This document shows, piece after piece, positions 2,948 through 59,200 of a stretch of DNA of 64,000 nucleotides. Every line of letters starts with the position of its first letter. The first letter of the stretch is position 1. Under the pieces are notes generated by a model, which was not told the origin of the DNA, did not search any database, and worked only from the letters and a program-made list of their open reading frames with translations. Made by a program: the position numbers and the translations under genes. This stretch comes from Acidobacteriota bacterium (GTDB lineage: Bacteria; Acidobacteriota; UBA6911; JACQSX01). Where the stretch lies: NCBI GenBank assembly GCA_036505615.1, contig DASXTB010000409.1, positions 4,540 to 68,539 on the forward strand, written 5' to 3'.

Positions 2948-3505
2948 TACCTAGTGCCCAGTGGTTGTCAGTGGCACTGCAAGCACCCACAGAGCCGCGA
3001 CCGGAAGGGCGCGGCGCGGCAATCTAAGGTATCCGCACGACCCCATAACCGTGAATATCTTGGCAGCTTGCACGCACCGGATTGGGGAAGCCCGGCTATG
3101 CTGTCGCGCCGCCTCCTTCCGGCCGCGGCTCCGTGGCTGCACGCAATGCCGTGTGGTCGGGGGCGGTCGATTTCCCAAATCTGAATTGCCCTGTTCACAC
3201 CAGCGGTTTGGACTCGCTCGCTAAGCGATTTCTGTCTTCCCGCCAAAATTTTGACCAATTTGTGAACTTTACGTTCATCAAGCGGACCTAGTCTCCGTTT
3301 CTCGAGACCAGTTGCAGGTCGCTGGCCTGGCACTAAGAGTTGACCGGGACCTGGCCACTAGCAACTGGCAACTGAGCACTGCGCACTGCGCTCTAAAATT
3401 TCTTTACATTGCCCGCGTTTTTCGCTAGTTTTCACCTGAATTTAAGAACTGACCCGAAATTGGTAATTAGCAACTGCTAACTAAGCATATTTTTAAATAA
3501 AAATC

Positions 3506-6057: not shown

Positions 6058-6088
6058 AGTATGGAACGAAGTATAGAACATGGATACG

Positions 6089-6245
6089 AGCGGGAGAGTG
6101 GGTGAGCGGGCGAGCGGCTGAGTGGGCGAGTCGGTAATCCCGTGATCCTTCAAACTCTCTATTATACGGTTCTCCAGTGACCGGCTCCCCTACTCCAGCG
6201 CTCTCCACTCCCCCACTCTCCCGCTCACCCACTCATTCCCTCTCC
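6089..6245. repeat. Inverted repeat (GRGAGTGGG-type units) between convergent genes
   Basis: 6089-6138 (gggagagtgggtgagcgggcgagcgg...) is the reverse complement of 6196-6245 (...ctctcccgctcacccactc). Likely a bidirectional terminator hairpin. The same unit family recurs inside a CDS at 58795-58915. Confidence 0.6.
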
Positions 6246-6262
6246 AGCCCGGTGTATCTTCC

Positions 6263-9662: not shown

Positions 9663-9778
9663 GCTGGCTCTTTTAATTCATGCATAATCCCGGTCAAGGT
9701 GTACGAACCACCTCAAATGAACTTGAAACTTGGAACTTGAAACCTGTAACTTCATCTACCTGTAACTCCATGTAAAAG

Positions 9779-11343: not shown

Positions 11344-11349
11344 CAATTG

Positions 11350-11505
11350 CGGGTTGTGGATTTCGGATTGCGGAATTAGAGAAATGCGGGTTGTCAGTGG
11401 TCCGTGGTCCGTTGTTTCTTAAGAAACCTCGTTGTTCAACAACTACGAACCACTGACAACGGACAGACTTAAATCCGCAATCCGAAATCCACAATCCGCA
11501 ATAGC
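11350..11505. repeat. Nested palindrome between convergent genes (CGGATTG outer arms, GTCCGTT inner arms)
   Basis: Outer gcgggttgtggatttcggattgcggaatt / aatccgcaatccgaaatccacaatccgcaat. Inner gttgtcagtggtccgtggtccgttg / caactacgaaccactgacaacggac. Probable bidirectional terminator. Confidence 0.6.
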
Positions 11506-13726: not shown

Positions 13727-14050
13727 TACCCAGTTCGTAGTTGCCAGTTGCCAGTTACCAGTTCCCAGTGGTCTATCTTAGTGCCGGATCGGCAACTGAT
13801 GTCCAGTGCCCAGTGTTCTAGAGCCCAGCGTCCCGTTACCAGTGGCCAGTGGCCAGTTGCCAGTTCCTGGTTTCATCCTCTGGTTACTGGTGGACGATCC
13901 GGCAATAAGATCAACGACTAGGAACTGCCAACTAGCCACTGGCAGCCCGGCGCTGGGCTCTGGAACGCTGGGTACTGGACATCAGTGGCCAATCCGGCAC
14001 TAAGATGGGCCACTGGGAACTGGTAACTGGCAACTGGCAACTGGACACTG
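13727..14050. repeat. Inverted duplication of a ~105-bp CCAGTKG heptamer-array element in a divergent promoter region
   Basis: 13727-13831 is ~90% identical to the reverse complement of 13945-14050. The 113-bp centre is itself partly symmetrical. Confidence 0.7.
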
Positions 14051-14151
14051 GGTACTGAGGTTTTAAAGTTGAAAAAAAGATCCAGAGACGCCAAGATCGA
14101 ATCTTGAAAATTTTGAGTCGCAAATTAACGGATTCCCCAGTTGTGTAATTA

Positions 14152-16455: not shown

Positions 16456-16471
16456 TCGAACTGAAACTGAA

Positions 16472-16660
16472 GGTCGAAAGTCGAAAGTCGAAAGTCGAGG
16501 TCGAAAGTCGAGGTCGAAAGTCGGACGTCGAAAGTCGAATGCTATCGACTCGCTCACCTTTTGAATGGCAAACCTGAAGACCGGCTGACTTGCGACCTGC
16601 GACTTTCGATCTTCGACTTTCAACCTTCGACTTTCGACAGGACCTGCGACTTGCGACCTT
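16472..16660. repeat. GTCGAAA heptamer array (16472-16540) and its reverse-complement array (16589-16660)
   Basis: (ggtcgaaa)n ... (tttcgac)n arms flank a 48-nt loop, ending 15 nt before the permease start codon. Confidence 0.7.
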
Positions 16661-18566: not shown

Positions 18567-18903
18567 AAGCCAGCTATCAGCCATCAGTCATCGGTCATCG
18601 GTCATCGGTAGTCAGTCATTGGTAGTCCTCTCATCGGTCATTAGCTTCCGTGAGCAACTGGACCAGGGATCTGATTTATTTTCAAAAATTGCTTCGCAAA
18701 TTTTCAGCTGGAGGAGTTATGTAAAGCGGAGACTTGGCAAATTAGACCAGGAATTGCGTATGTTTCTCCGCTTGATCAACGGCTACGTCCGATCGATAGG
18801 AGACCGATGACTGATGACCGATGACCGATGACTGATAACCGATGACTGATGGCTGATGGCCGATGACCAATGACCGATTAACGATGACTGATGACCGACG
18901 ACG
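18567..18903. repeat. CATCGGT heptamer array (18567-18644) and inverted ACCGATG array (18806-18903) flanking a 160-bp unique core
   Basis: Direct read of tandem catcggt/catcagt units on the left and accgatg/actgatg units on the right. The core has SD-ATG-TAA at 18710-18724. Confidence 0.7.
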
Positions 18904-19900
18904 CAGAATCGGTCTGCAGGCGTTCCAGTATGGAAATGGTTCTGGACCCGCGGTTACAGACAAAAACGTAGGCGTTGTCGCGGCTCACATGCACTGCAGC
19001 TGGTTTGACGCCGACTGCAACTTGCTCCAGCTCGGTAAATGACTCCAGGTCGAAGATTGCAACTTTGCCTTCCAGACCGTTTGTCACGTACAGATACTTG
19101 CCGTCGCCGCTAATCTCCATTGCAGTCGGGCCACTTCCGGTCGAGATGTGTTTGGTTTCTTTCTCTTCGTCCAGGGAAATCCGCACTACACTGTTGCGAG
19201 GTCCAAGCGCGAACAACCAGCGCTCCTGAGGATCGACAACCAGCGGTGTGTCCCTTGCCGTAACAACATTGAACGTACGGATCACCTTTTTTAGCGTCAT
19301 ATCAACGACGGCTATCTGTTGCATACCCACCGCAACGTAAGCTTGACCTCTCTGCGTCGCTACGGCCAAGCCCGCGATTGGAGAGTTAAACTCTACTTCC
19401 TTGATGGGACGGTATGTAAAGGGGCTGAGAAAGGCGAGCTTCTGATGACGGGCCAGAAGCACCAAGACCTCACGCTGGTATTGTCCGAAAAAGGTCGGTC
19501 CCCCGCCCAGTGGGATGCTGCGGGTAAAGCGGTTTCCATAAAGATCGATCAAGGAGATTTTGCGGCCGCTCCAGTGTCCGATCAGAGCAAGCTTGTCTCC
19601 CGGCAACACGTGAATAAACAGCAGTGAACCATCCAGCCGAAGACGGCTTGTCACCCTGCCCAACCTCAAGTCGTAAAATAGTACTTGATCATCTCCTGTA
19701 GTAATAACCAACTTCCGGTTATCGGGCGTCACCCAGCTGGCAATCGGAACTGATTCCAACTTTACTGTCGTGAAAAGACGATGAGTCTGCTGCGCGTTGG
19801 CAATGGACCAAAGTGCGAAGCTGGCAAGAAAGAATGAGGCTGGACCGTTGAATTTCGGTTTTCTGCGCAAGTCTTTCCCCTGGCAATCGTCGTCAGTCAT
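18878..19900 (-). CDS. Secreted YVTN-family beta-propeller protein
   Basis: Start taken at MTDDD...FFLASFALWSIANA (signal peptide). Repeats contain YVTNGLEGKVAIFDL and YVFVCNRGSRTISILE. Confidence 0.6.
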   Translation of the reverse strand: MTDDDCQGKDLRRKPKFNGPASFFLASFALWSIANAQQTHRLFTTVKLESVPIASWVTPDNRKLVITTGDDQVLFYDLRLGRVTSRLRLDGSLLFIHVLPGDKLALIGHWSGRKISLIDLYGNRFTRSIPLGGGPTFFGQYQREVLVLLARHQKLAFLSPFTYRPIKEVEFNSPIAGLAVATQRGQAYVAVGMQQIAVVDMTLKKVIRTFNVVTARDTPLVVDPQERWLFALGPRNSVVRISLDEEKETKHISTGSGPTAMEISGDGKYLYVTNGLEGKVAIFDLESFTELEQVAVGVKPAAVHVSRDNAYVFVCNRGSRTISILERLQTDSASSVISHR

Positions 19901-19929
19901 TCGGCATTGGCCGGATAAAAGCCGATCAC

Positions 19930-20025
19930 GACCACGTTCACGAGCAGGTCCACGCCTACGCGGACGAAAATACACAATCGCTCACGATTCGACTGGTCGT
20001 AGTCGTGGACGTTGACGTGTTAGCG
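19930..20025. repeat. Dispersed ~100-bp CACGNN-hexamer palindromic element, copy 1 (copy 2 inverted at 26397-26513)
   Basis: gtccacgcctacgcggacgaaaatacacaatcgctcacgattcgactggtc here matches the reverse complement of 26440-26490 with 2-3 differences. Confidence 0.7.
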
Positions 20026-24534: not shown

Positions 24535-24700
24535 GGCGCAAGATCCTCGGATAACTTGGAGAGTGTCTCAAGACAATGAACCACGGGGGACACTGGGAAC
24601 ACGGGGAGTTTAATGATTCCTTTAGCAATAAGATTTAGTGCTAATTTCGAAAGCCGTTGTGGTCCCCGTGTTCCCAGTGTCCCCCGTGGTTCATTGTCTT
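24535..24700. repeat. Giant near-perfect palindrome (~45-bp stem, ~55-nt loop)
   Basis: tgtctcaagacaatgaaccacgggggacactgggaacacgggga ... tccccgtgttcccagtgtcccccgtggttcattgtcttgagaca. Confidence 0.7.
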
Positions 24701-26284: not shown

Positions 26285-26396
26285 AGCGTGTAGCAGAGAA
26301 ATTTGTAGCAATTAAATAGGAGGCGGATTACACAGAAACAACTACTATTTGGTGAAATCTTGTGCTCTCGGCAAAATTTGGCGCTGAACAGCCGAC

Positions 26397-26513
26397 CACG
26401 TTCACGTTCACGAGCACGTCAACGTCCACGACTACGACCAATCGAATCGTGAGCGATTGTGTATTTTTCGTCCGCGTAGGCGTGGACGTGTTCGTGAACG
26501 TGAACGTGGTCGT
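26397..26513. repeat. CACGNN-hexamer palindromic element, copy 2 (inverted relative to 19930-20025)
   Basis: cgaccacgttcacgttcacgagcacgtcaacgtccacgactacgacc ... ggcgtggacgtgttcgtgaacgtgaacgtggtcg. The core matches copy 1. Confidence 0.7.
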
Positions 26514-26635
26514 TATCGGCTTTTATTGGTTTGCTGCTTTACCGCGCTAGGTCCCTTGGTGGTGAAGCTTTTTTCAGGCGACAAAGGACACGAAGGATAC
26601 AAAGGCGCACCAAGGGTCCGCCCCGGTTGCGAGCC

Positions 26636-33229: not shown

Positions 33230-34002
33230 GGCGTCACCTGGCTTCCGATGATCCCCCGAAGCTGCGGAGGCAATGCGGGTGCACCACCCGCGATCGCCCG
33301 AGAATCGGCGTTGATGATGCCTACGATTCTCAATTTTTGCTGGTTCTTTTTGACCAGGGTGATACGAATCGCCAACGGCAGCCTTCCGATTGTCTCGGCG
33401 TCCCAGGGACCATCCCATGAGTAATCGCCCTGCCCTCTGTCGCCGAAATACTCAAATTTCCCGTTCTCCAGGCCCGAAAAAAATACCGTGGATTTCTGCG
33501 CGCCGGCGCCCATGTTCAAATAAGTCTGCCCGCCTCGGTACTGGCTCTCTGCTTCAAGAAAATCCAGGCTCCCCTGCGTTCCCGGAGCCAGAGAATAAGA
33601 GATCATCGACATGCCGGCGTTCTTCTTGAAGAACAGCGGAGCAAAGCTGGCAAAGAGCACATGCTGGTCGTCGCCTTTAAACAGCGGCGGAATCTGCTGC
33701 CGCATCGCAACCAGTCGCTCAAAGAATCCCTGGGGATTCAGTTCCGGCTGTTCGCCCTGCCGCTGCGCGCGGATTGGCTCGTAGAATTTCCCTTTCGGCC
33801 GAACCGGGAATGAAGATCCAATCTGCGTCTTGACCAGCTCGATGATTACTTTCTCGCGCTGGGAGCTTTCTATCCGCTCGTTCCCTTTTCTGTAGGCATT
33901 CAGAGAGACTCGCAGCGCCAGAAACACGATCACAGACAGAACCGACACCAGCGTCAGCGTGATCAGCAATTCAAGCAGTGTAAAACCTCGTTGGCCTCTC
34001 AT
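33226..34002 (-). CDS. GspJ-like pseudopilin
   Basis: Prepilin N-terminus MRGQRGFTLLELLITLTLVSVL. Start at 34002 overlaps the stop of the upstream gene (ATGA). Confidence 0.55.
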   Translation of the reverse strand: MRGQRGFTLLELLITLTLVSVLSVIVFLALRVSLNAYRKGNERIESSQREKVIIELVKTQIGSSFPVRPKGKFYEPIRAQRQGEQPELNPQGFFERLVAMRQQIPPLFKGDDQHVLFASFAPLFFKKNAGMSMISYSLAPGTQGSLDFLEAESQYRGGQTYLNMGAGAQKSTVFFSGLENGKFEYFGDRGQGDYSWDGPWDAETIGRLPLAIRITLVKKNQQKLRIVGIINADSRAIAGGAPALPPQLRGIIGSQVTP

Positions 34003-34772
34003 TGGAAATTCCTGAACGGGTTGTTGGGCTGAGCTATGGGCGGGCGAGGCGCGTTGGGGGGCGCGCTGAAAGCACCGGGAGTGTTCAAGGCCGGCTGCTC
34101 GCGCAAGCCCACCGGTTTCAGGCAAACCAGGCGATACAGCTTTCCATTTTTGTCATTCTTGTAGATCACATCCACACGGACGCTCAACAGTTTCATGGGA
34201 AATTGGGTGCGTCCGTCCCATCGGGCTTGTTCTGGAATCTCAAAGTCTTGAACCATCGCCTCCCACCGGAAATTGTCGTCCAGATCATCGTGTCTAGTTA
34301 TCGGGCCCTTGATGGTCTCATCGGAGAGAATTTCATTCATGACGTTCTCCGCGTAATTCATCGCCTGGCCGGCCAGGTCCATCTTGCGCACATTCTTCAG
34401 CGCTCCTGAAAAGAGTTGCAGAGCTACAGTGATGCCTATGCTGACGATCGCCAGCGCCACGACCACTTCCAGTAAGCTGAAACCCCTCCTGGAATGCCGA
34501 ATGCCGAGTGCGGAATGCGGAATGCTTTCTGAATGCGGAATGTCTTTTGAACGCGGAAGGCGAAATGCGGAATGCGGAATGCTCCTTGAATGCGGAATGG
34601 GGATTGCGGAATGCGGAATGTCTCCTGATTGGGGAACGTCCAACGCGGAACAGAGAGTGAAAGACGGCAGCCGATTAACAGTTTGAAATCCCCATTCCGC
34701 ACTCTGCATTCCGCATTCCGCATTCGATACCCCGCATTCCGCATTCGAAATTCCGCATTCGAAATTCCGCAT
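33999..34772 (-). CDS. GspI-like pseudopilin; 5' end undefined because the ORF runs into a GCGGAAT repeat array
   Basis: Prepilin motif SRRGFSLLEVVVALAIVSIGITVAL at ORF residues 95-120. No ATG/GTG lies near the motif; the nearest in-frame candidates are ATT (34502) or TTG. The upstream 90 codons are translated repeat. Confidence 0.5.
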   Translation of the reverse strand: MRNFECGISNAECGVSNAECGMQSAEWGFQTVNRLPSFTLCSALDVPQSGDIPHSAIPIPHSRSIPHSAFRLPRSKDIPHSESIPHSALGIRHSRRGFSLLEVVVALAIVSIGITVALQLFSGALKNVRKMDLAGQAMNYAENVMNEILSDETIKGPITRHDDLDDNFRWEAMVQDFEIPEQARWDGRTQFPMKLLSVRVDVIYKNDKNGKLYRLVCLKPVGLREQPALNTPGAFSAPPNAPRPPIAQPNNPFRNFQ

Positions 34773-34800
34773 TACCCACGCTCCTTCGGGATGGTCAACT
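34490..34800. repeat. GCGGAATGC heptamer/nonamer arrays in inverted orientation within the pseudopilin operon
   Basis: (gcggaatgc)n at 34490-34640 and (gcattccgc)n at 34690-34790. Confidence 0.7.
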
Positions 34801-35428
34801 TAGCCGATCCGGTAATCACGTCGGTTTTCACAATCACCTTCCGGCCGCGGTCGTTTTCCAATACCAACTCCGCATCATCGGCTCGGCCGTTCGGGTAAAA
34901 GCTGATGTAGACGGCCGGATCCCGACTTTCCTCTCCTTCAAACTTTACGGAACTCACTTTGATCTCGTCGCTAAGCCCAAAGTCGTGGACCTTGTCGTGA
35001 TAGGCGTCCGCCAGAAAGATGATGTTGCGGTCCCTTTGGACTGCGATCCGATAAACCCGCTGCTCCCCGACGGCCAAAGTCCGGGCGGTGCGGCACAATG
35101 TAACGAAGTCTCGCCCTTTGGCCTCCAGTCTCATGCCCGCAAGGCCCGTGCGCATCGACGGCATCACAACCGCCATGGCGACGGCTATTATCACCAACAC
35201 GATCACGACCTCGATGAGGGTGAAACCTCTTCGGGATTGCGGAATGCGGAATGCGGAATGGCTCAATTGCGGAATGCGGATTGCGGACTGCGGATTACTC
35301 GATTTCGGATTTCGGATTGCGGATTGCGAATTGCGGATAGTACGTTCCAATCTGTCAATCCGCAATCCGCAATCCGCAATCCGAAATTGGATAACCTGAT
35401 GCTCCAAAATACAGCCATCAAAGTGCAC
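34772..35428 (-). CDS. GspH-like pseudopilin; 5' end undefined (repeat array upstream)
   Basis: Prepilin motif QSRRGFTLIEVVIVLVIIAVAMAVV. No nearby ATG; a TTG at 35266 would give a 14-aa leader. Confidence 0.5.
   Translation of the reverse strand: MHFDGCILEHQVIQFRIADCGLRIDRLERTIRNSQSAIRNPKSSNPQSAIRIPQLSHSAFRIPQSRRGFTLIEVVIVLVIIAVAMAVVMPSMRTGLAGMRLEAKGRDFVTLCRTARTLAVGEQRVYRIAVQRDRNIIFLADAYHDKVHDFGLSDEIKVSSVKFEGEESRDPAVYISFYPNGRADDAELVLENDRGRKVIVKTDVITGSAKLTIPKERG
35235..35400. repeat. CGGAATG/CGGATTG arrays with an inverted CAATCCG partner
   Basis: cgggattgcggaatgcggaatgcggaatgg...gcggattgcggattgcgaattgcgg / caatccgcaatccgcaatccgcaatccg. Confidence 0.65.
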
Positions 35429-35865
35429 TAGTTACTCTCCCACGAAGTGATGTCGGCATTTTGGCCTTGGCCACCCTCTTGGCCGTCTGGGCCAAAAGAG
35501 TAAAGATCGAACTCACCGTGCTGGCCGGGGCAGCGATAGATGAATTCACGCTTCCAGGCATCTTTGGGCACGAAGTTCTTCTGCAGGTATGGACCATTCC
35601 AGTTGGCGATGTTTCCCGGATTTACTAACAAGGCGTGCAGCCCCTCTTCTGTTGCCGGATAACGACCCACATCAACCTTGAATGAGTCCAGCGCCGTCTC
35701 CAACAAGCTGATCTGCCTCTTGGTAATCGTTATTCGGGCCTTTATCAGGTGATCCATGATTGCTGGAGTCACCAGCCCGGCCAGCAGACCCAAAATGACA
35801 AGAACTACAATCAGTTCGATCAGAGAAAACCCTCTCTGCCTTTCTTCACTTCTGTCCGTTGCCAT
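35428..35865 (-). CDS. gspG: Major pseudopilin GspG
   Basis: MATDRSEERQRGFSLIELIVVLVILGLLAGLV. GspG hallmark C-terminus (YSFGPDGQEGGQGQNADITSW). Confidence 0.8.
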   Translation of the reverse strand: MATDRSEERQRGFSLIELIVVLVILGLLAGLVTPAIMDHLIKARITITKRQISLLETALDSFKVDVGRYPATEEGLHALLVNPGNIANWNGPYLQKNFVPKDAWKREFIYRCPGQHGEFDLYSFGPDGQEGGQGQNADITSWESN

Positions 35866-35958
35866 AAGACCTCCGATCCGTATGGATCCCGCTGGGACTA
35901 ATTCCGCATTCCGCAATCCGCATTCCGCATTTGAGCGAATCCGCATTCCGCAATCGCA

Positions 35959-36399
35959 TCACCGCTTGTCCACCCACGAGGTAATATCCGCGTTTTCGCC
36001 GTCTCCTCCCTCCTGGCCGTCGGCGCCCAGCGAATAGAGGTCGTATTCACCGTGCTGCCCGGGAGCGCGATAGACGTAGTCATGACCCCAGGGGTCTTTC
36101 GGTACCGCGTTCTTCTTCAAGTAGGGCCCGCTCCAATTGGCGATATTTCCCGAGTTTTGAATCAGCGATTCCAGCCCCTCCTGGGTTGTGGGATAACGGC
36201 CCACATCGAAGTTGAACAAATCCAGCGACTCCTCAAACTGCGAGATCTGGACCTTGGCTATCTGCGCGCGGCTGCCTTTCAACTTGGACATCACCTTGGG
36301 ACCTACCACCGCGGCCAGCAGGCCTAAAATGACCAGTACCACGATCAGTTCGATAAGCGAAAATCCTTCATCTTTCCGTTTGCGTTCGACCTTGAACAT
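35959..36399 (-). CDS. gspG: Major pseudopilin GspG, second paralog
   Basis: MFKVERKRKDEGFSLIELIVVLVILGLLAAVV ... YSLGADGQEGGDGENADITSW. Confidence 0.8.
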   Translation of the reverse strand: MFKVERKRKDEGFSLIELIVVLVILGLLAAVVGPKVMSKLKGSRAQIAKVQISQFEESLDLFNFDVGRYPTTQEGLESLIQNSGNIANWSGPYLKKNAVPKDPWGHDYVYRAPGQHGEYDLYSLGADGQEGGDGENADITSWVDKR

Positions 36400-36404
36400 A
36401 CAGT

Positions 36405-36520
36405 TCCTCGTTTAGTCCGTTGTCGGTTGTCCCTAGTCCGTTGTCCGTAGTCGGTTGTCCATTGTTTGGTCAAATCGTATCTTTAAGGCACCTGACTACT
36501 GACAACGGACCACTGACTAA
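36405..36520. repeat. GTCCGTT heptamer array with an inverted partner (same family as the inner arms at 11395-11480)
   Basis: tagtccgttgtcggttgtccctagtccgttgtccgtagtcggttgtcc ... ctgacaacggaccactgac. Confidence 0.65.
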
Positions 36521-36525
36521 CGATC

Positions 36526-37746
36526 CTACAAAGGTACGTCATTGATGCTAAAAATGGCCATCAACATCGAAACAACCATGGTTCCGATAATCAAACCCAT
36601 AACCAGAATAATCGCCGGCTCAAAGAATGAGACCAAGCGCTTCAAAGCATTGCGCACTTCCTTGTCGTAAGTGTCGGCGACCTGCAGCATCATCTTGTCC
36701 AGGTTTCCGGTCTCCTCCCCTACCTCGACCAAATGCAGCGCGAAAGGAGGAAATATATTCGCTTCCCGAATAGGGACTGAGATTCCCTCGCCTTTCTTTA
36801 TTCCGGATTTGATCGAGTCCATGCGCGAGGCAATGGCCTGGTTGTTGACGATCTCTTTGACGATCGTCATAGCGTTGAGCAGCGGCACCGAACTGCGCAG
36901 CAATGTTCCCAGAGTTCGACTGAATCGGGAAACTTCCATCTTGTGAACGACCGGGCCCACCAAAGGAAGACGCAGCATTCTGCGGTCCCAGTTGAGGCGC
37001 CCTTCCTCGGTGGCAAGGTAGCGCCGCAAGCCAAAGAAGATGGACCCGGCCACCAGCAGCAACAGCCACCACCAGCCCCGCAGAAAATTGCTGATCCCCA
37101 GCATGATCCTCATGGGAAGCGGCATGGGAGCGCCGGCATTTTCAAAGATCACCGTAAACTGGGGAATGACGAACAAAACCAGGATGATAATCGAGCTGAC
37201 GCCCACCAGAGTCAGCAGCGCCGGATAGATGAGTGACGAGATAAAGTAGCTTTTCAAATCCTGCGCGCTTTCCAGGTATTCGCCCAGCCGCTCCAGGATA
37301 TTGTCCAGCACTCCGCCTGCCTCGCCGGCACGGATCATGTTGACATAAATCTTTGGAAACACGCGGGGGTGTTTTGCCAGGGCGTCTGCAAGCGACTTGC
37401 CGCCGCGCACCTCATCCAGCACGTCACGGATTACTTCACGAAAGTGCTGGTTTTCCGTAAGCGCGGTAAGAATGGACAGAGAGCGATCCAGCGGAAGGCC
37501 GGCCTTTACGAGCGTCCCCAGCTCCTGTGTAAAGACCAGCAGCTCTTTGGTACTGACTCTTTTCCGGCCAAACGGAAGCGAAAAAGCACGGCGGAAGAGA
37601 GAGCCCTCCTCCTCGCTCGCTACCCGGATGGGAAGATACCCCTGATCGCGCAGCTTGCTGATGACACTTCTGTCATCCAGCGCGTCGAGGGTCCCCTCGA
37701 CCACTCTTCCATCCAGCGTCATCGCCTTATAACTAAAAGAAGCCAT
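36526..37746 (-). CDS. gspF: Type II secretion / type IV pilus inner-membrane platform protein GspF/PilC
   Basis: 406 aa. Two GspF-type repeats, each with three TM helices. Confidence 0.85.
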   Translation of the reverse strand: MASFSYKAMTLDGRVVEGTLDALDDRSVISKLRDQGYLPIRVASEEEGSLFRRAFSLPFGRKRVSTKELLVFTQELGTLVKAGLPLDRSLSILTALTENQHFREVIRDVLDEVRGGKSLADALAKHPRVFPKIYVNMIRAGEAGGVLDNILERLGEYLESAQDLKSYFISSLIYPALLTLVGVSSIIILVLFVIPQFTVIFENAGAPMPLPMRIMLGISNFLRGWWWLLLLVAGSIFFGLRRYLATEEGRLNWDRRMLRLPLVGPVVHKMEVSRFSRTLGTLLRSSVPLLNAMTIVKEIVNNQAIASRMDSIKSGIKKGEGISVPIREANIFPPFALHLVEVGEETGNLDKMMLQVADTYDKEVRNALKRLVSFFEPAIILVMGLIIGTMVVSMLMAIFSINDVPL

Positions 37747-37917
37747 TTTTTAATTTCGGATTGCGGATTGCGGATTTCGGATTGCAGATTTCGGATTGCG
37801 GATTGGGAATTGACAGCTAAGCGAGTTGCTCACAATGCGCAAACCCGCCATCCGCGAATCCCCAATCCGCAATCCGAAATCAGCAGTCCGAAATCCGAAA
37901 TCCGCAATCCGCATTCC
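37747..37917. repeat. CGGATTG heptamer arrays in inverted orientation between gspF and gspE
   Basis: tttcggattgcggattgcggatttcggattgcagatttcggattgcggattgg ... aatccgcaatccgaaatcagcagtccgaaatccgaaatccgcaatccgc. Confidence 0.7.
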
Positions 37918-45947: not shown

Positions 45948-45960
45948 CTTAAGTTAGGTC

Positions 45961-46150
45961 GCAAGTCGCAGGTCGCAGGTCGAATCCTCAAGTCGCAGGT
46001 CGCAGGTCGCACGTCGAAATCCTCAAGTCGCAGGTCGCAAGTCGCAGGTCGCAGGTCGAAAGCGAAAACCCAGACTTTTAAAGTTCCTCTTAAAAATGAA
46101 AAAGGGGTCATGGACTCGGAACCTGCGACGTGCGACCTGCGACTTGTAAC
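45961..46150. repeat. GTCGCAG heptamer arrays in inverted orientation
   Basis: (gtcgcaggtcgcaag)n at 45961-46060; cctgcgacgtgcgacctgcgac at 46120-46145. Overlaps the last ~13 codons of trmFO. Confidence 0.65.
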
Positions 46151-47547
46151 CTTTGTTTACAGAATTCTTCCATCGCCTGGCGCGCCAGCGCAATTTGACC
46201 AGCCCGGCGCACTTCTTTTTTCCCCCGCATTTCGACAGGCGGCAGCAACCCAAAGTTTATGTTCATCGGCTGAAAGCTCGCCGAATCTGCCTGGGTGATG
46301 TAATGCAGAAGGCTCCCAATTGCGGTCTCTCGAGGAAACTCGAGCGGGTTGCCTCCTGAAGCCACTCGCATGGCATTCCATCCGGCAACCAGTCCGGTGG
46401 CCATTGATTCGACATACCCCTCCACTCCGCAGATCTGGCCCGCGAAATAGATCTCCGGCCGAAACTTCAACTGAAGCGCCCGGTTTAGCAGCCGGGGAGC
46501 GTTAATAAACGTGTTTCGATGAATCTGGCCCAGCCGGATAAATTCGGCGCGCTCCAGGCCCGGGATCAGCCGGAAGACTCGCTGCTGTTCCCCGTAGCGA
46601 AGGTGATTTTGAAAACCTACCATGTTATACGCGTCGGCCACCAGGTTTTCCTGGCGCAGTTGTACCACTGCATATGGCTGCAGGCCAGTTCGAGGGTCGC
46701 GCAGGCCAACAGGCTTCATAGGGCCAAATCGGAGTGTGTCAAGCCCGCGGCGGGCCAGCTCCTCGATTGGAAGACAGGCCTCAAAGAACATCGCCTTTTC
46801 GAATTCCTTAACAGCGACCGACTCCGCATGCAGAAGAGCGTCGTAGAAGCGCTCGTACTGATCGCGTGCCATCGGGCAATTCACATAATCGCCGTCAGCG
46901 TGCTGTTGGACTTCCGCTTGTTTACAGGCAGCGTGCTGCGTTTCAGTGGAATGACCGGTTTCCTGTGGAGACTCAGCCCGCCGCTTCTCTTCCAAAATTC
47001 GATGATCGTATCGCGAGCGCCGAAAAACCTTGTCCCAATCAATCGAGTCGGATTCCACGATGGGACTGATGGCATCGTAAAAATAGAGCGCCGCTTCACC
47101 GGTCATCTCCTTAATGAAGCGCGAAAGTCCCGGTGAGGTGAGCGGCCCGGTGGCGATGATGGCAATTTGGCCCGCGGGAATCTCGACCACTTCGGACCTT
47201 TCTACGCGGATTGAGGGATGGTTTTGCAGGGTCTGTGAAATCGTCTGGCTGAACTTTTCCCGATCCACGGCAAGAGCCGCTCCGGCCGGAACTTTGACCC
47301 GGTCGGCAATGGAGATTAGCAGAGAGCCGCACCGCCGCAGTTCCCATTTCAGCTGGTGTGGCGCGCTCCCCTCGAGGTCGGACTTGAACGAATTGCTGCA
47401 CACCAGCTCGCCCAGCCAGTCGGTTTGATGAGCCGCGGTCTTGACCGCAGGCCGCATTTCAAACAGGCAAACCTTGCCGCCCTGCTGCGCAATCTGCCAC
47501 GCAGCCTCTGACCCTGCCAGTCCACCACCGATGACCCAGATCTCCAT
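46108..47547 (-). CDS. trmFO: Methylenetetrahydrofolate--tRNA-(uracil54-C5)-methyltransferase TrmFO (Gid)
   Basis: Start at MEIWVIGGGLAGSEAAW (FAD GxGxxG). FAGQICGVEGYVESMATGLVAG. C-terminal ~13 aa are repeat-encoded. Confidence 0.85.
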   Translation of the reverse strand: MEIWVIGGGLAGSEAAWQIAQQGGKVCLFEMRPAVKTAAHQTDWLGELVCSNSFKSDLEGSAPHQLKWELRRCGSLLISIADRVKVPAGAALAVDREKFSQTISQTLQNHPSIRVERSEVVEIPAGQIAIIATGPLTSPGLSRFIKEMTGEAALYFYDAISPIVESDSIDWDKVFRRSRYDHRILEEKRRAESPQETGHSTETQHAACKQAEVQQHADGDYVNCPMARDQYERFYDALLHAESVAVKEFEKAMFFEACLPIEELARRGLDTLRFGPMKPVGLRDPRTGLQPYAVVQLRQENLVADAYNMVGFQNHLRYGEQQRVFRLIPGLERAEFIRLGQIHRNTFINAPRLLNRALQLKFRPEIYFAGQICGVEGYVESMATGLVAGWNAMRVASGGNPLEFPRETAIGSLLHYITQADSASFQPMNINFGLLPPVEMRGKKEVRRAGQIALARQAMEEFCKQRLQVAGRTSQVPSP

Positions 47548-47552: not shown

Positions 47553-47700
47553 TAAATGGGACACGGATGAACACGGAATACACGGATGAAGCCCCCGTCG
47601 CGGCCGGTCAAGAGACCGGTTCAGTATGTGGTTGGTCGGCCGCGACGGGGGCTTCATCCGTGTATTCCGTGTTCATCCGTGTCCTGATAAAACGGCAAGA
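47553..47700. repeat. Giant perfect palindrome (48-bp stem, 30-nt loop), CACGGAT family
   Basis: ggacacggatgaacacggaatacacggatgaagcccccgtcgcggccg ... cggccgcgacgggggcttcatccgtgtattccgtgttcatccgtgtcc. Confidence 0.75.
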
Positions 47701-51574: not shown

Positions 51575-52039
51575 ATGTCGCCGACTGGCAAGAGACAACG
51601 CCAGACCCTGATTCGCAGGATTATCGCTGAAGAGGAAATCTTCAGCCAGGAAGAATTGCGAAATGAACTGCTGAAGCGCTCGGTGAATGTTACGCAGGCC
51701 ACTCTTTCCCGCGACATCGCCGAGCTGGGCCTGGTAAAACAGTCCTCCACGGGAACCTACACGCTTCCTGAAAACGTGACTGAACATACAGAGGCTCACG
51801 CCATTTTGGCCCGCATGCGCCAACTGGTTCAGGAGATCGATTTCTCAGGCAACCTGGTGCTGGTCAAGACCGCGCCAGGCGACGCGCAAGCAGCGGGACT
51901 TGCCATGGACCACCTTCAATTCAAGGAAGTGGTGGGAACCATCGCCGGCGACGATACCCTGCTCGTGGTGATACGGGCAAAATACAAAGCATCGGGCTTT
52001 GCCAGAAAACTGGAGAAAATGCTGGCAGGAGAAGGCTAG
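51575..52039 (+). CDS. argR: Arginine repressor ArgR
   Basis: 154 aa. N-terminal winged helix (FSQEELRNELLKRSVNVTQATLSRDIAELGLVK). C-terminal GTIAGDDTLLVV. No SD; a TAGAAT -10-like hexamer lies 9 nt upstream, so the transcript may be leaderless. Confidence 0.85.
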   Translation: MSPTGKRQRQTLIRRIIAEEEIFSQEELRNELLKRSVNVTQATLSRDIAELGLVKQSSTGTYTLPENVTEHTEAHAILARMRQLVQEIDFSGNLVLVKTAPGDAQAAGLAMDHLQFKEVVGTIAGDDTLLVVIRAKYKASGFARKLEKMLAGEG

Positions 52040-52450
52040 GAGGCAGGAAGCAGGAGGCAGGAAGCAAACGGCAGGAAGCAGGAAGCAGGAAGCAGGAGGC
52101 AGGAGCCAGGAGGCAGGAGGCAGGAGGCAGACGGCAGAAGGCGGAGGCAGAAAGCGGAAGGCCGAAGGCGGAAAGCGGAAGGCAGTAGACAGAAAGCGGA
52201 AGGCGGAAAGTGGAATGCAGCAGGCGATGGCTTACAAGGCGTCATCTGTCATTCGTCATTTGTTACCCACAACGACAGACGACGATTTGATACGTGAACT
52301 GTCTTCTGCCTTCCGCTTTCTGCCTGCTGCTTTCTGCCTGCTGCTTTCTGCCTTCTGCTTTCTGCCTCCTGCTTTCTGCCTTCCGCCTTCCGCTTTCTGC
52401 CTACAGCCTTCCGCTTTCTGCCTACAGCCTTCCGCTTTCCGCCTTCCGCC
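52031..52450. repeat. GCAGGAA heptamer array (52031-52230) and inverted TTCCTGC array (52300-52450) between argR and argF
   Basis: ggaggcaggaagcaggaggcaggaagc... versus ...ctgccttccgctttctgcctgctgctttctgcc. Confidence 0.75.
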
Positions 52451-53416
52451 TTAAACGAACTCCCGGTGCAGCGCTTTCAGCAGCAGGGCCTTGTGCACGT
52501 GCAGGCGGTTTTCGGCCTGGTCGTAGACGATGGAGCGCGGTCCATCGATAACTGAATCAGAGACTTCTTCACCCCGGTGCGCGGGAAGGCAGTGCATGAA
52601 GAACGCCTTCTTGCCGGCGCGGGTCATCAGTTGTGGAGTCACCTTGTATTGTGCAAAGTCCCGCAACTTCCTTTCTGCATCCCTCTCCTGGCCCATACTG
52701 ACCCAGGTGTCTGTGTAAACGGCATCCGCTCCAAAAAGATGGCCCAGATCGTGGCTGAATTCCACGATGCTGCCGCTCTCCCCGGCAAATTGTGCCGCGC
52801 GCCGGCAGCAGAGTGCGTCCGCCTCATAACCGGGAGGCGAGATCAGAGTGAAGTGCATTCCCAGCAGAGCGCAAATCTGCATCAGCGAGTTACTGACGTT
52901 GTTGGGGTCTCCCACGTAAACCAGCTTGCGATGCTTCACCTCACCCCAGCGCTGCTGCAACGTCAGGACGTCGGCCAGCACCTGGCAGGGATGTTCAAAA
53001 TCGCTGAGCGCATTAATCACCGGGATGGATGAATTTCGAGCCAATTCCTCCAGCGTCGATTGGGAGAATGTTCGAGCAATCACAATGGAGCACCAGCGCT
53101 CCAGATTCCTTCCTGTGTCCTTGATCGATTCCCGTTCACCAATCTTCTGCTGCTGGCAATCCAGAAAACTGGCCGTACCTCCCATGCTGTGCATTCCAAT
53201 TTCAAAAGTGAGACGGGTGCGGAGAGAAGGCTTTTCAAACAGCAACACGGCGTGACAGCCGGAGAGCGAATTCTGATGCGTCTCGGGCGCATTCTTCACC
53301 AGACACGCCAGTTGCAGCAGGTCGTGGATGCGTTCCACGCTGAGATCGGAGATCGCAAGCAGATGTTTCGGCCAGTCCCCCGCTGGATTCGTCTTAGGCT
53401 TCTTCAAGTTCTTCAT
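52451..53416 (-). CDS. argF: Ornithine carbamoyltransferase
   Basis: FEKPSLRTRLTFE (STRTR-type carbamoyl-phosphate site), HCLPAHRGEE. Start taken at MKNLKK (the ORF extends to 53524). Confidence 0.85.
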   Translation of the reverse strand: MKNLKKPKTNPAGDWPKHLLAISDLSVERIHDLLQLACLVKNAPETHQNSLSGCHAVLLFEKPSLRTRLTFEIGMHSMGGTASFLDCQQQKIGERESIKDTGRNLERWCSIVIARTFSQSTLEELARNSSIPVINALSDFEHPCQVLADVLTLQQRWGEVKHRKLVYVGDPNNVSNSLMQICALLGMHFTLISPPGYEADALCCRRAAQFAGESGSIVEFSHDLGHLFGADAVYTDTWVSMGQERDAERKLRDFAQYKVTPQLMTRAGKKAFFMHCLPAHRGEEVSDSVIDGPRSIVYDQAENRLHVHKALLLKALHREFV

Positions 53417-54826: not shown

Positions 54827-56176
54827 TCAAGCCCGCTTCCCCAAAGGTTGAGATTGATGCTTTTCGTCTTCCTGCCGACTGCCTTCTGCCTCCTGCCTTC
54901 CGCCTTCTGCTTTCTGCCTTCTGCCTTCCGCTTTTTGCCCTCCGCCGTCTGCTTCCTGCCTGCTGAGCGGAGAGGGTCGCAGCAGCGCGTTCACACGCAG
55001 GCGCGTCGCCTGCAGGCGGATGAATCCTTCGGCGTCCTTCTGCCGGTAAACGTCGTCCTTTTCAAATGTCGCCAACTCCTCTGAGTAGAGAGACCGGGCC
55101 GCACGCCGTCCCAGCACGCTGCAGTTTCCCTTGTACAAACGCAGCTTGACTTCACCGGTCACGTTCTCCTGGCTTTCACGGACAGTTTTCTGCAGCAGCC
55201 GCATTTCCGGCGAAAACCAGAAGCCGTAATAGGTCCACTCAGCAAACTTCAGGCTCAACTCTTCTTTCCAGTGCTGGACTTCGCGATCCAGTGTGATCGA
55301 TTCCAGAGCCCGGTGCGCGTGCCACAGCAAAGTGGCGCCCGGCGTTTCGTACACTCCGCGAGATTTCATCCCTACGAAGCGATTTTCCACCAGATCGACG
55401 CGGCCCACGCCATGAACTCCACCCAGCTTATTGGCCTCCTCCAGAAGTTCCACCGGGCCAAGCGGCCGGCCATTGATGGCGACAGGAATTCCTTTTTCAA
55501 AGCTGAAAACAACCGTCTCTGGACGCTCCGGGGCAGTGACCGGGTTGGCCGTCAGGATGTATATATCCTCCGGAGCCTCGGCCCAAGGATCCTCAAGGAT
55601 TCCTCCCTCGTGGCTGCAGTGCATCAGATTACGGTCGGTGCTGTAGGGCTTTTCCAGAGTGGCCGTCACCGGCAGCGAATGCTTCCTGCAATACGCGATC
55701 AGATCGGAGCGGGACTGCATCTCCCAGTCGCGCCAGGGAGCGATTACCTGAATATCAGGAGAAAGTGCGTAGAAGGTGAGTTCAAAGCGAACCTGATCGT
55801 TGCCCTTGCCGGTGGCGCCGTGCGCGACGCAGAAAGCCCCCTCCTTTCGCGCTACTTCCAACTGATGCTTGGCGATGACGGGGCGAGCCAGCGAGGTGCC
55901 CAGAAGATAATAACCCTCGTAAAGGGCGTTTGCCTGAATTGCCGGGAACACGTAGTCACGGACGAATTCTTCGCGCAGGTCCAGAATGAGGCTCTTGGAA
56001 GCGCCCAAGGATTTGGCCTTCTCTTGCAACCCGTCCAGCTCTTCGGCCTGGCCTACGTCGGCGGTAAAGGTGACGACCTCGTATCCTTTTTGATGCTTCA
56101 GCCAATGAAGCATCACTGTCGTGTCCAGCCCGCCGGAGTAAGCCAGCACGACCCGCTTTAAATTCTTCTCCTGCAT
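54827..56176 (-). CDS. argG: Argininosuccinate synthase with a repeat-encoded low-complexity C-terminal tail
   Basis: 449 aa. [10 protein letters not shown] (PP-loop). The last ~45 aa ([37 protein letters not shown]) are translated from the GCAGGAA-family array at 54845-54965. Confidence 0.9.
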
Positions 56177-56254: not shown

Positions 56255-59200
56255 TCACGGGATGGGCGCGCGAATTCCGCGAATGCGGTAGTTGCCTGTA
56301 TCGGCGAAGAGAAGATTGCCGGCAGGGTCGAAATCCAGAAACGACGGCAGCTTCAGAGCGGTGTTGGTGGCCTGAGTGTTGTCACCCGTGAAGCCGCTTA
56401 TCCCGTTGCCGGCCACCGTAGTGATGACACCTGTCTTTGCTGCCACCCTTCGAATCCTTGTCTCTTCCGAAACGAAAAGATTGCCGGCGGCGTCGAACTT
56501 AACGCCCACTGGATGGTTCAGGCCCGCAGCCGTAGCAGGCCCGTTATCACCGGAGGAACTGGCCTGGCCGTTGCCGGCCACCGTCGTGATAATGCCCGTA
56601 GCGGCGTCCACCCGGCGCACCCGATTGTTCCCACTGTCTGCGATTACTAAATTTCCGGCACTGTCAACGGCAATACCTGTCGGCGAATTCAAAGCGGCAT
56701 CGGTCGCAGGGCCGTTGTCGCCAAGACGATCGGATGGGCTTCCTCCTCCCACGGCCGTGGTAATGATGCCGCTTCTCAGATCCACCCTACGAATCCGGTT
56801 GTGGTTTGTGTCTGCGACGTAAAGCACCCCCGCGCGGTCGATGGCGATTCCTTGCGGCAAATTGAGGCTGGCGGCGGTGGCCGGTCCGTTATCCCCTGAG
56901 AAATCCGACTGACCGTTTCCCGCCACGGTTGTGATGACGCCGGCGCCGTCCACTTTTCGAATTCTGTTGTTTAGCGAGTCGGAAATGAAAAGATTTCCAC
57001 TCCCGTCGATGGCCACGCCAGTTGGAGAGCTTAATGGACTCGAGGCGGCTGGAACATTGTCTCCAAGAAAACCGGCAATTCCGGTTCCGGCGACAGTGGT
57101 GATAATCCCGGTGCTTGCGGTAACTTTTCGGATCCGTTGGTTTCCGAAATCTGCAATAAAAAAGTTTCCCGCAGCATCCACCGCGATTCCTTGCGGCGAA
57201 AGCAAATTGGCTGCCGTTGCCGGTCCGCCATCCCCCAGGAAACTTTGTTGGCCGTTGCCTGCCACTGTGGTAATCGTTCCCGCCGAGACCCTTCGAATCC
57301 GGCTATTTCCCTGATCCACGATCAAAAGATTGCCGGCGCCATCTGTCGCCACTCCGTAGGGTGATGACAAGGCAGCCTGCGTCGCAGGGCCGCCGTCTCC
57401 AGAGAAACCCTGCACCCCAGTTCCAGCTACAGTGGTGATGATTCGCGTGGAGGCGTCGACCCGCCGAACACGGTGGTTGGCTGTGTCGCCAATGAAAAGG
57501 TTACCAGCGACGTCCACGGTAATACCGGCGGGAGAATTCAGCATCGCGCTGGTTGCACTCTGCAAGTCGCCGGAAAAGCCGGCCTGCCCGTTTCCCGCGA
57601 CCGTGGTAATCACTTTCGAAGCGGCATCGATTCTTCGAATCCGTTGATTGACCGTGTCGGCAACGAAGACATTACCGGAAGCATCCAGCGCAATTCCTTG
57701 GGGGGATCTGAGGGCCGCGGCCGTGGCCGGCCCGTTGTCGCCGCCAAAGTCTGGATCCGTTCCTGCAATCGTAGTGATGATTCCGGTCTTTGCATCGACT
57801 TTGCGAATACGGTGATTCGAAGTGTCGGCGATAAGCAAATTGCCTGCTCCATCGATCGCCACTGCGCGTGGGGCATTCAACGTTGCCTGAGTGGCCGGCC
57901 CCCCATCCCCGGCGAAGGGCCCCAGCCCGCGTCCCGCAACGGTTGTGATAGTTCCAGTCGCCGCGACGATTTTTCGGACCCGGCTGTTTGCTGTGTCCGC
58001 GACGTATAGATTCCCCGCACTATCGATGGCGATTCCTCGTGGGAAAGCCAGCGAAGCGGCGATAGCCGGCCCGCCGTCGCCGGAAAAGCCGATCTGGCCG
58101 TTGCCCGCCACGGCAGTAATAATTCCGGTCGCCGCGTTGATCTTTCGGATGCGATTATTATTTGCGTCTGTAAAGAAAATATTTCCCGCAGGGTCGACGG
58201 CCATTTGCTGCGGGCTGAAAAGAGTAGCTTCAGTGGCCGGACCTCCGTCGCCCGTAAAAGTCGTCCCTCCGGCGACCGTGGTGATCTGTCCGGGAAGCAA
58301 ATCACTTAGAGGAATCGGATCGACGAGCAAGGGTTTCTGCGCCACGCCGCCGCGGTTCTGCACTGTCAGAGTCAGGCGGCCGCTGGGAAGCGGAGGCGCG
58401 ATAACAGTCAGCGTCTGCGTGTCCAAGACCTGCGGGTTTGCCACGACCCCTCCCACGATCACCACTGTCTCAGGCGCAAAATTCCTTCCGCTGATTGTGA
58501 CCAGCGCGCCGCCTTTGTTGCTGACTCGGCCGGGATTGATGCTGGAGATCGACGGCTCGCCGTAGGTGATTTCGCCGTTGGAGCGGCTGCTGTCGGCCAC
58601 CAGAACCTTTCCGCTGCGCGTGATGGCGATTCCTCTGGGAGTGGCGAACGTATTGGCTTGAGCGGCGGCGGCGATATCTCCGTTTCGCAGCAGGGCAGTT
58701 ATCTGACCTGAATTTGCCTCCGTCACATAGATGTTACCGAAAGGATCTACCGCTACGCCGGTGGGGGATTTGAATTTCAACGGGGAGACTGCGAAAGGGC
58801 GAGTGAGGGAGGAGGAGAGCGGGGGAGTGGGAGAGGGGGGGAGTGAGAGAGTGTGGGAACGGGGGAGTGGGCGAGTGGGAGAGTGGGTGAGCGGGAGAGT
58901 GGGAGATGTCGGAAATGTAACTCGCCCGACATTCCTCTTGGCTGCAATGGCGCCGATGGTTTCCACTGTGCCGTCTTCTTTAACCCGGCGCAGCAGGCCG
59001 TTTCCGGTGTCGGCGACGATGACACTGACCGGCGGCGGAGGATCTCCCGTTGCTTCGCGCGCCAGTTGCTGGCCGAGCGACTCGGTCTCAACTGCGATCC
59101 CGGCAGGGAAGTTGAAGCTGGCAGCGGAGCCGACTCCATCCGCTGCGCCGGCCACACCCGCTCTTCCAGCAACGGTCTCCACCGTCTTTGCCTTGCTCGG

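Follow-up and report, generated by a model that had tools for sequence, protein, structure and literature searches.

The question raised by this locus is where translation of two minor pseudopilin genes begins. The genes, gspH-like and gspI-like (gspH and gspI below), belong to a type II secretion system (T2SS)-like operon, recognized by gene order and profile models, that occupies the minus strand at 30-40 kb of a 64-kb stretch of DNA from an uncultured Acidobacteriota genome; the whole stretch is called the window, and its coordinates are used throughout. As stated in a preliminary description of the sequence, both open reading frames (ORFs) carry a prepilin peptidase motif (RRG/FTLIEVVIVLVIIAVAMAVV and RRG/FSLLEVVVALAIVSIGITVAL, with the cores RRG/FTLIE and RRG/FSLLE, the slash marking the cleavage site), and arrays of 7-nt repeats fill their 5' ends and extend right to the RRG codons. 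No ATG or GTG is found within 14 codons of either cleavage site. Our reading is that gspH and gspI probably encode functional minor pseudopilins that are translated from canonical start codons coupled to the upstream stop codons, and that their very long, repeat-encoded leaders would be removed by prepilin peptidase. Judged from the DNA and its comparison with relatives, ATG 34772 is most likely the start of gspI, and GTG 35428 most likely that of gspH. Determined directly were how the sequence is built, how leaders vary among relatives, the selection acting on the mature parts, and the fold predicted for the RNA; from these we infer the start codon used, the translation of the arrays in the source organism, and the processing of leaders of such length.

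Candidate start codons and the segments that follow them

The preliminary description had concluded that the two genes lack a canonical start codon, and in this it was mistaken. ATG 34772 and GTG 35428 both exist, in frame, on the stop codons of the upstream genes and behind Shine-Dalgarno (SD)-like motifs (Table 1), and the frame is free of stops over the 97 codons from the former to the Gly codon of gspI and over the 68 codons from the latter to that of gspH. It had also placed in-frame ATGs 75-95 codons upstream of both motifs; this is true of gspI, where just two occur (34709 and 34772, giving leaders of 76 and 97 amino acids, aa), but not of gspH, which has no in-frame ATG at all and offers, besides GTG 35428, only TTGs with leaders of 14, 42, 47, and 61 aa. 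The candidates nearest to the motifs are ATT 34502 and TTG 35266, as it reported; from the first, gspI translates as IRHSRRG/FSLLE, and from the second, gspH translates as LSHSAFRIPQSRRG/FTLIE. Leader length depends on the start that is chosen: 7 and 14 aa from the ATT and the TTG, for which no purine-rich ribosome-binding site was found in the 16-20 nt upstream, or 97 and 68 aa from the coupled starts. Public annotation holds three differing start calls for the pair. Both NCBI and JGI begin gspI at ATG 34709 (236 aa). For gspH they differ: the JGI call starts at GTG 35428 (218 aa), that of NCBI at a TTG situated 42 codons ahead of the cleavage site.

A few other arrangements were considered and dropped. 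The RR codons of gspI read AGGAGG, but the next in-frame CTG and GTG are 12 and 18 nt away, and a start at either would delete the cleavage motif; furthermore, the related locus L002 reads AGGCAG at this place. An AGGAG in the loop between gspH and gspI stands only 2 nt ahead of an ATT that would give a 46-aa leader. A gspH-gspI readthrough fusion is impossible because the two reading frames do not match (gap of 2 mod 3).

Tandem Repeats Finder delimits two 7-nt arrays between gspH and gspI (the H-I spacer), which are the hairpin arms of Table 1, and two between gspG2 and gspH (the G2-H spacer), at 35234-35338 and 35356-35387. The units are degenerate (65-80% matches, with at most two to three perfect units consecutively in the window) and contain no stop codon in any frame of this strand. 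The RNA of the H-I spacer is predicted to form a single long hairpin of -148.6 kcal/mol (z = -8.7), a value that 0 of 100 shuffled sequences equaled, and that of the G2-H spacer to fold with -87.5 kcal/mol (z = -5.3); by this modeling the arrays of both spacers are not due to chance. In the minimum-energy fold and in the centroid fold alike, the base of the H-I hairpin contains the gspI AUG and, because this hairpin is very stable, initiation at gspI should depend on a ribosome that is finishing gspH. We envisage that ribosomes ending gspG2 and gspH would re-initiate at the overlapped GTG and ATG, respectively, and that the placement of the gspI AUG would exclude free ribosomes and tie gspI expression to translation of gspH. 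The ribosome would then unwind the hairpin and read through the arrays. Both hydrophilic leaders would remain cytoplasmic, and prepilin peptidase would cut between Gly and Phe to leave a normal mature protein; the arrays would have grown inside the sole dispensable part of the gene, the leader segment between the start codon and the Gly-Phe site. Coupling or re-initiation had been among the options of the preliminary description, and coupling is supported, by way of the canonical codons on the upstream stops, but re-initiation at the ATT or TTG is not.

The predicted leaders have no hydrophobic segment. Mean hydropathy is -0.39 for gspI (top 19-residue window, 0.51) and -0.55 for gspH; in the 67 residues before Gly the gspH leader has 11 Lys and Arg against 5 Asp and Glu, and that of gspI is barely positive (9 against 8). 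Class III leaders are hydrophilic and cytoplasmic, and the two predicted here fit that description (PMC4471445). Tryptic peptides predicted from the gspI leader include NFECGISNAECGVSNAECGMQSAEWGFQTVNR, SIPHSAFR, and DIPHSESIPHSALGIR, and those from the gspH leader IADCGLR, NSQSAIR, SSNPQSAIR, and IPQLSHSAFR.

Both ORFs have Gly at -1, Phe at +1, and Glu at +5, followed by a hydrophobic helix of ~20 residues, and both pass the models for the prepilin N-terminal cleavage and methylation site (PF07963, 35.5 and 33.1 bits, cut-off 21.2; TIGR02532, 31.0 and 29.0 bits, cut-off 16.3). With the equivalog models, the GspH-like ORF scored 37.8 bits for TIGR01708, under the cut-off of 80, and the GspI-like ORF 25.8 bits for TIGR01707, under that of 44.35. 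The XpsH model NF047827 gave 36.8 bits against a cut-off of 160, with 139 of 145 positions aligned, and the XpsI model NF047828 gave 51.3 bits against 150, with 118 of 132 aligned. We use the names GspH-like and GspI-like because the equivalog cut-offs were missed; they reflect this weak full-length similarity to XpsH and XpsI together with operon position, the one gene lying directly after gspG and the other between gspH and gspJ, as in T2SS operons (gspE-F-G-H-I-J-K-(L)-M-...-D). Two gspI homologues are labeled "general secretion pathway protein I" by JGI.

The mature parts were compared with those of L002, where protein identity to the window is 87-90% and the 5' ends are filled with repeats in the same way. 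The dN/dS ratios are 0.042 for gspH (dS 1.38) and 0.090 for gspI (dS 0.73), similar to those of gspG1, gspG2, and gspJ, and indicate that both mature parts are under strong purifying selection and are not pseudogenes; the preliminary description's suggestion of incipient pseudogenes is thus rejected. Because L002 shares it, the repeat architecture would have been compatible with function since the common ancestor. A JGI contig, L001, that diverges from the window elsewhere is identical to it over 35512-30965, which supports the array lengths and gives no obvious sign of misassembly. Collinearity between L001 and the window extends from 35512 to ~26385, with 10 single-base differences only, all past 30965; at window ~26385 (L001 ~9140), within an array-bearing spacer (26285-26635), it switches to wholly different sequence. 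Either the DNA is rearranged at this break, or the assembly was joined there at the repeats.

Table 1. Features of the gsp region, in window coordinates except where another locus is named.
Feature	Coordinates	Strand	Remarks
Candidate gspI start ATG	34770..34772	(-)	Overlaps gspH stop (TAATG); base of spacer hairpin
Shine-Dalgarno AAGGAG	34781..34786	(-)	In conserved P-K-E codons at gspH 3' end; 8 nt before ATG 34772
Candidate gspI leader, 97 aa	34482..34772	(-)	Terminal G 34484-34482; no in-frame stop
Mature GspI-like minor pseudopilin	33999..34481	(-)	TGA stop 34001-33999
Internal gspI ATG	34707..34709	(-)	76-aa leader; within hairpin 5' arm; without Shine-Dalgarno motif
ATT candidate, gspI	34500..34502	(-)	7-aa leader; piece of repeat unit GCATTCC; without Shine-Dalgarno
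H-I hairpin 5' arm	34689..34773	(-)	(GCGGAAU)n-type units on mRNA
H-I hairpin 3' arm	34491..34620	(-)	(AUUCCGC)n-type units on mRNA, ending at RR codons
Candidate gspH start GTG	35426..35428	(-)	Overlaps gspG2 stop (TAGTG)
SD-like GGGAGAG	35435..35441	(-)	gspG2 3' end; GGAG core 8 nt, motif end 6 nt from GTG 35428
Candidate gspH leader, 68 aa	35225..35428	(-)	Terminal G 35227-35225; mostly GGATTGC, AATCCGC, ATTCCGC arrays
Mature GspH-like minor pseudopilin	34772..35224	(-)	F+1 at 35224; TAA stop 34774-34772
TTG candidate, gspH	35264..35266	(-)	14-aa leader; without Shine-Dalgarno; not conserved in L002
G2-H heptamer arrays	35234..35387	(-)	(GGAUUGC)n and complement (GCAAUCC)n form hairpin, then AAUCCGC/AUUCCGC units to RRG
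gspG2, second major-pseudopilin paralogue	35428..35865	(-)	TAG stop 35430-35428
gspE	39642-37918	(-)	
gspF	37746-36526	(-)	
gspG1, first gspG paralogue	36399-35959	(-)	
gspJ	34002-33226	(-)	ATG 34002-34000 overlaps gspI TGA stop (ATGA)
Further operon genes: gspK, PilM-type gene, GspM-type gene, secretin			
Orthologous array stretches in related loci	L002 4832-6208; L003 4665-5989; L038 2301-2380; L039 1-39; L042 642-1560		

Leaders and arrays in related loci

Thirty-one loci from species-representative Acidobacteriota genomes, the single locus that a metagenome scan returned, and 14 loci reached via individual homologues were compared (L numbers); the sub-clade of the window was defined by a gspH C-terminus of P-[KR]-E-x-x or similar. 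Among about 40 related Acidobacteriota loci, the usual layout has gspI beginning on the stop codon of gspH; in the wider family this junction reads ATGA, sometimes GTGA or TTGA, and the leader is commonly 5-14 aa long. In the sub-clade, the SD motif is located in the final P-[KR]-E codons of gspH, ahead of the overlapped start, and the short-leader members L045, L046, and L047 have the arrangement SD-N5-ATGA and leaders of 11, 10, and 14 aa, respectively. The window keeps both the sub-clade motif and the overlapped ATG. Working from the overlapped start, the gspI leaders across loci measure 5, 5, 5, 5, 5, 8, 9, 10, 10, 11, 14, 14, 25, 36, 44, 45, 61, 70, and 97 aa. Comparison with orthologues had been set beforehand as a test, with an orthologous ATG mutated in the window as the refuting outcome; it came out differently, in that the orthologous ATG on the gspH stop is still present and the repeats are downstream of it.

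The overlapped start is in frame (a stop-to-Gly distance of 2 mod 3) in 7 of the 9 sub-clade loci that have a spacer, and the binomial probability of at least 7 of 9 is ~0.008, ignoring relatedness. All five loci that have no SD-preceded proximal start (the window, L002, L004/L008, L039, and L041) are among the seven, and the two exceptions each have an SD and ATG of their own. In L038, this is GGGAG-N5-ATG with a 17-aa leader; in L042, an in-frame stop is followed by GAGGTGA-N6-ATG in the loop and then by a 49-aa leader running through ACGGACA and AATCCGC arrays.

The in-frame ATGs of gspH in L002, L042, L003, and L038 occur only upstream of the AATCCGC/ATTCCGC arrays and give leaders of 33, 42, 18, and 22-25 aa, respectively; the L042 array additionally contains a TTG at 4 and another at 14 codons, neither of them with an SD motif, and in L038, no near-cognate start was found within 12 codons of the cleavage site. 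The window (GTG-CAC), L002 (ATG-CAT), and L042 (ATG-CAC) have the gspH N-terminus M-H in common. The proximal gspH candidate varies: the window and L002 have an ATT at -7, L042 and L039 a TTG at -4, and L003 an ATC at -6, whereas L038 has none inside 12 codons.

Spacer lengths and array phase were compared as well, in small samples, as was leader composition. The H-I spacers of sister lineages (287 versus 203 nt) differ by a multiple of 21 nt, i.e., of three units or seven codons, and so do the G2-H spacers of L003 and L038 (57 versus 78 nt), whereas clearly non-coding spacers differ by 59, 128, and 5 nt between sister lineages. In four gspH lineages the array keeps one and the same phase with respect to the Gly codon, and differences beside the junction are whole codons. 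The start-to-Gly length differences of gspH among the window, L002, and L042 (105, 78, and 27 nt), of which one alone is a multiple of 21, were not used. Overall, the comparison suggests that the leaders of relatives include translated arrays of this type and that the window is the extreme of a series.

The final 60 nt before the gspI Gly codon are identical at 53 of 60 positions between the window and L002, without indels, compared with 38 of 60 four-fold degenerate sites in the mature part, and the core of the gspH array is nearly entirely identical. Arrays of the unit families ACGGACA/ACGGACC, AATCCGC/ATTCCGC, and AGGCAGG occupy orthologous gsp spacers in genomes whose synonymous divergence is 0.7-1.4. 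Conservation of arrays beside the cleavage motifs suggests either selection on the repeat itself or homogenization. In L042, a composite (ACGGACA)n-AGCTTTC-(AATCCGC)n precedes both gspH and gspI (positions 700-795 and 1470-1560 of that locus), as if one leader region had been copied from the other by duplication or gene conversion.

Apparent gspI starts of the form TTGA or GTGA on the gspH stop, with 5-8-aa leaders, were seen in L026 (~2836), L037 (~3995), and L033/L034/L036 (~3992); because distant relatives have TTG or GTG there, start-codon identity seems relaxed at this junction. In L003, NCBI annotates gspI from an internal codon (MEIVV..., positions 6001-6480, protein P0006), with loss of the cleavage motif; an ATG with a 17-aa leader, common to L003 and L038, was available but not used, which illustrates that gene callers can be misled by such 5' ends.

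Weighing the readings

Several points weigh against translation of the arrays from the coupled starts. Class III signal peptides described so far have 6-26 aa (PMC4471445), far fewer than the 68-97 aa proposed here, and a hairpin of about -149 kcal/mol would stand in the path of the ribosome and need unwinding. The open frame through the spacer is weak evidence, as no frame of the repeat units contains a stop and the spacer between gspG1 and gspG2, which is non-coding, is likewise open in frame; we therefore dropped it as evidence for translation. Similarly, an N-TGA overlap yields ATG, GTG, or TTG by chance in three cases out of four, and its mere presence was also dropped in favor of the frame relation, which alone is informative and which L038 and L042 break. 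The array is conserved as nucleotides and not as peptide: over the 15 codons that precede the cleavage site of gspI, all L002 differences change the amino acid, and because the array differences alter amino acids in this way, the constraint would be on the nucleotide repeat (RNA or DNA structure, or homogenization) rather than on the peptide. The loci are few and related, and are short-read assemblies in which repeat counts may be wrong. Within the long frames the exact start codon also stays uncertain, as the window offers ATG 34709 and a TTG at 54 codons for gspI and a TTG at 42 codons for gspH, and relatives have an ATG at 31 and 37 codons (L002), a GTG at 10 (L004), and a GTG at 24 (L039).

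The alternative closest to the preliminary description is that rare proximal codons are used, i.e., ATT 34502 for gspI (7 aa) and TTG 35266 or ATT 35245 for gspH (14 or 7 aa), with the arrays as untranslated spacer; in one variant, the folded hairpin, which does place the gspH stop near the 3' end of the arrays, might let ribosomes that come free at the upstream stop cross to the proximal codon. Leaders would then be of normal length, the window and L002 have an ATT at -7 in both genes and L042 has one in gspI, and the TTG and GTG overlapped starts of L026 and L037 speak for relaxed start identity. However, any CATTCCG array gives an in-frame ATT every 21 nt, and the ATT of gspI is itself part of a GCATTCC unit, so its presence means little. 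Neither codon is preceded by an SD-like motif, no start is suitably spaced behind the AGGAGG of the gspI RR codons (which is AGGCAG in L002), and the candidate codon is not conserved, shifting by lineage until L038 gspH has none within 12 codons. Initiation at AUU has ~1% or less of the efficiency of AUG in E. coli reporter assays. Nor do proximal starts account for the in-frame position of the overlapped start in all five loci without an SD-preceded proximal start, or for length differences that are multiples of 21. We judge this alternative unlikely. Damage to the genes, or to the assembly, is the least probable explanation of all: repeats would have destroyed the native starts and silenced the genes, or repeat counts would be misassembled. 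There is no proximal canonical start, repeats and inverted repeats are hard for short-read assembly, and public annotation offers its three different start calls, but dN/dS is 0.04-0.09 at dS 0.7-1.4 against a locus with the same 5' ends, the mature parts have no frameshifts or stops, L001 is identical across the region, and the same architecture recurs in independent assemblies from other samples (L002, L042, L039, L003, and L038).

The remaining possibilities give the repeats a function. Slippage of 7-nt units would shift the reading frame and could turn GspH and GspI on and off, the window being in the ON state; such a contingency switch is compatible with translation from the coupled starts, and there are precedents in the CTCTT repeats of Neisseria opa (PMC3745409) and the heptamer repeats of Haemophilus phase variation (PMC12721329). 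In its favor, a unit of 7 nt is not a whole number of codons, the proposed leader-coding segment contains the arrays, and relatives differ in array length. Yet units this degenerate, with no more than two to three perfect copies in a row, are a poor substrate for slippage, most of the genome's non-coding spacers are filled by such arrays, which are thus not gene-specific, the two assemblies covering the stretch (window and L001) show no length difference, and the frame is ON in every lineage examined. The switch is accordingly very unlikely. A combined scheme fares slightly better and is still improbable; here the arrays would act both as a hairpin gate that admits only ribosomes from the upstream gene and as a slippage-prone frame setter that switches the tip minor pseudopilins, an opa-like contingency that an environmental Acidobacteriota would have made out of a genome-wide repeat system, with class III signal peptides of up to 97 residues, several times the length of those described. 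Less probable even than the simple switch is RNA processing, in which an RNase III-like cut of the duplex would separate the gspH and gspI messages and translation would start near the new 5' end. The duplex in the spacer is very long, paired arrays occur in many spacers, including those between convergent genes, which suggests a general role at the RNA or DNA level, and the arrays evolve more slowly than four-fold sites (53/60 versus 38/60 identical). However, there is no canonical start near a processed 5' end and no mark of a cleavage site in the sequence, and the conserved frame of the overlapped start would go unexplained. Translation from the coupled ATG and GTG, which accounts for that frame, is the reading we prefer.

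The operon, other arrays, and known systems

Of the neighboring genes, gspG1, gspG2, and gspJ have ATG starts at an ordinary distance from the motifs, as had been reported. The second gspG paralogue (TIGR01710, 161.5 bits, cut-off 88.85) starts at an ATG with GGAGG 4 nt before it and has a 12-aa leader (MATDRSEERQRG/FSLIE). The paralogues are in tandem at 35428-36399, with 95% (first) and 73% (second) identity between the window and L002; some relatives (L004/L008) have only a single gspG. The gspI/gspJ overlap (ATGA, 34002-33999) has the same layout in every sub-clade locus containing gspJ (gap of 11 nt), and the gspK gene as called by JGI (L001 2298-3395) has a 4-nt overlap with the gspJ stop. 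A promoter and terminator scan of 33900-36600 on the minus strand found nothing, neither an internal promoter in the spacer loops nor termination after the hairpins.

Arrays of 6-10-nt units, mostly 7 nt, are present in 16 of the 28 window spacers of at least 40 nt, and each spacer has its own unit. Outside the gspH and gspI region, they were located at 3351-3391, 6056-6235, 9720-9752, 11346-11502, 13739-14051, 16469-16659, 18571-18902, 24582-24688, 26396-26605, 36415-36465, 37753-37917, 45958-46152, 47561-47682, and 52030-52452. Usually an array is followed by its reverse complement, and thus a long hairpin is possible; the arrays sit between convergent, divergent, and tandem genes and often take up all the space between stop codon and ribosome-binding site. 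At other places in the window, the array ends 8-17 nt before an ordinary ATG, as in gspF (37746) and the genes starting at 16676 and 45947, and because these other arrays stop before the ATG, gspH and gspI are true exceptions. Two arrays (18802-18902 and 54868-54965) overlap the 3' ends of ORFs (18878-19975 and 54827-56176, respectively), and a 16-nt/8-nt array (GGGAGAGTGGGGGAGT, 58797-58906) lies inside a 1737-aa ORF (56255-61468); repeats at other gene ends are possibly translated too, or the ORF limits are wrong. An Rfam search of the whole window returned zero matches, for the arrays or anything else, and a search of the literature for paired heptamer arrays in Acidobacteria found nothing specific. 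The arrays appear to be a dense and undescribed population in this Acidobacteriota lineage, conserved beyond neutral expectation and placed between stop and start codons. This paired-array repeat system and the possible record length of the leaders are where the value of the locus mainly lies; for annotation, placing the coupled start by comparison gives a principled answer where the public start calls for gspH and gspI differ.

The predicted leaders share with other class III signal peptides, which are cleaved by PilD/GspO-type peptidases, the Gly at -1, Phe at +1, Glu at +5, the hydrophobic helix of ~20 residues, the hydrophilic leader, and a basic RRG. They differ in being, most likely, 68 and 97 aa of translated 7-nt arrays, with every intermediate length seen in relatives. 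If leaders of this length are real, the class III range would be extended from ~26 to ~100 residues, three to four times the longest described, and the leader would be an evolutionary free zone in which repeat arrays can expand without harm to the protein.

Initiation at AUU is known from genes such as infC, and gspH and gspI share with that type an in-frame ATT 7 codons before the cleavage site; here, however, it is without an SD motif and not conserved beyond the repeat unit, other codons standing in its place in L042, L039, L003, and L038. The cyanobacterial STRR heptamers are a further case of abundant intergenic heptanucleotide repeats. TAACTGA heptamers lie between genes in marine Beggiatoaceae and in cyanobacteria, with one inverted set among 170 in a Beggiatoaceae genome (PMC4679880). 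Such heptamers have in common with ours the tandem 7-nt units in intergenic regions, often a few bases before a start codon, the length steps of 7 nt, and the lack of an assigned function; in the window, each spacer has its own unit, the reverse complement usually follows so that a hairpin can form, and in gspH and gspI the array is inside the frame.

In Neisseria opa, perfect CTCTT repeats in the leader-coding part switch the frame about once in 1000 per generation (PMC3745409). Common to both systems are non-triplet repeats in a segment that is removed as leader or signal and whose amino acids can vary freely, but the units here are degenerate, come as inverted pairs, belong to a genome-wide intergenic population, and show no length polymorphism between the two assemblies. 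Termination-reinitiation at stop-start overlaps (ATGA/TGATG) with an intragenic SD motif is established (Huber et al. 2019, PMC6728339). The gsp pairs resemble such genes in being co-directional, in their 1-nt overlaps (TAATG, 34774-34770, and TAGTG, 35430-35426), and in having an SD motif 8 nt upstream in the preceding gene; what sets them apart is that the gspI start is in the base of a predicted -149 kcal/mol hairpin and that ~200-290 nt of putative repeat-derived coding sequence follow. The reading that we prefer would need no new mechanism of translation, as it combines class III signal peptides, overlapped coupled genes, and intergenic heptamer repeats.

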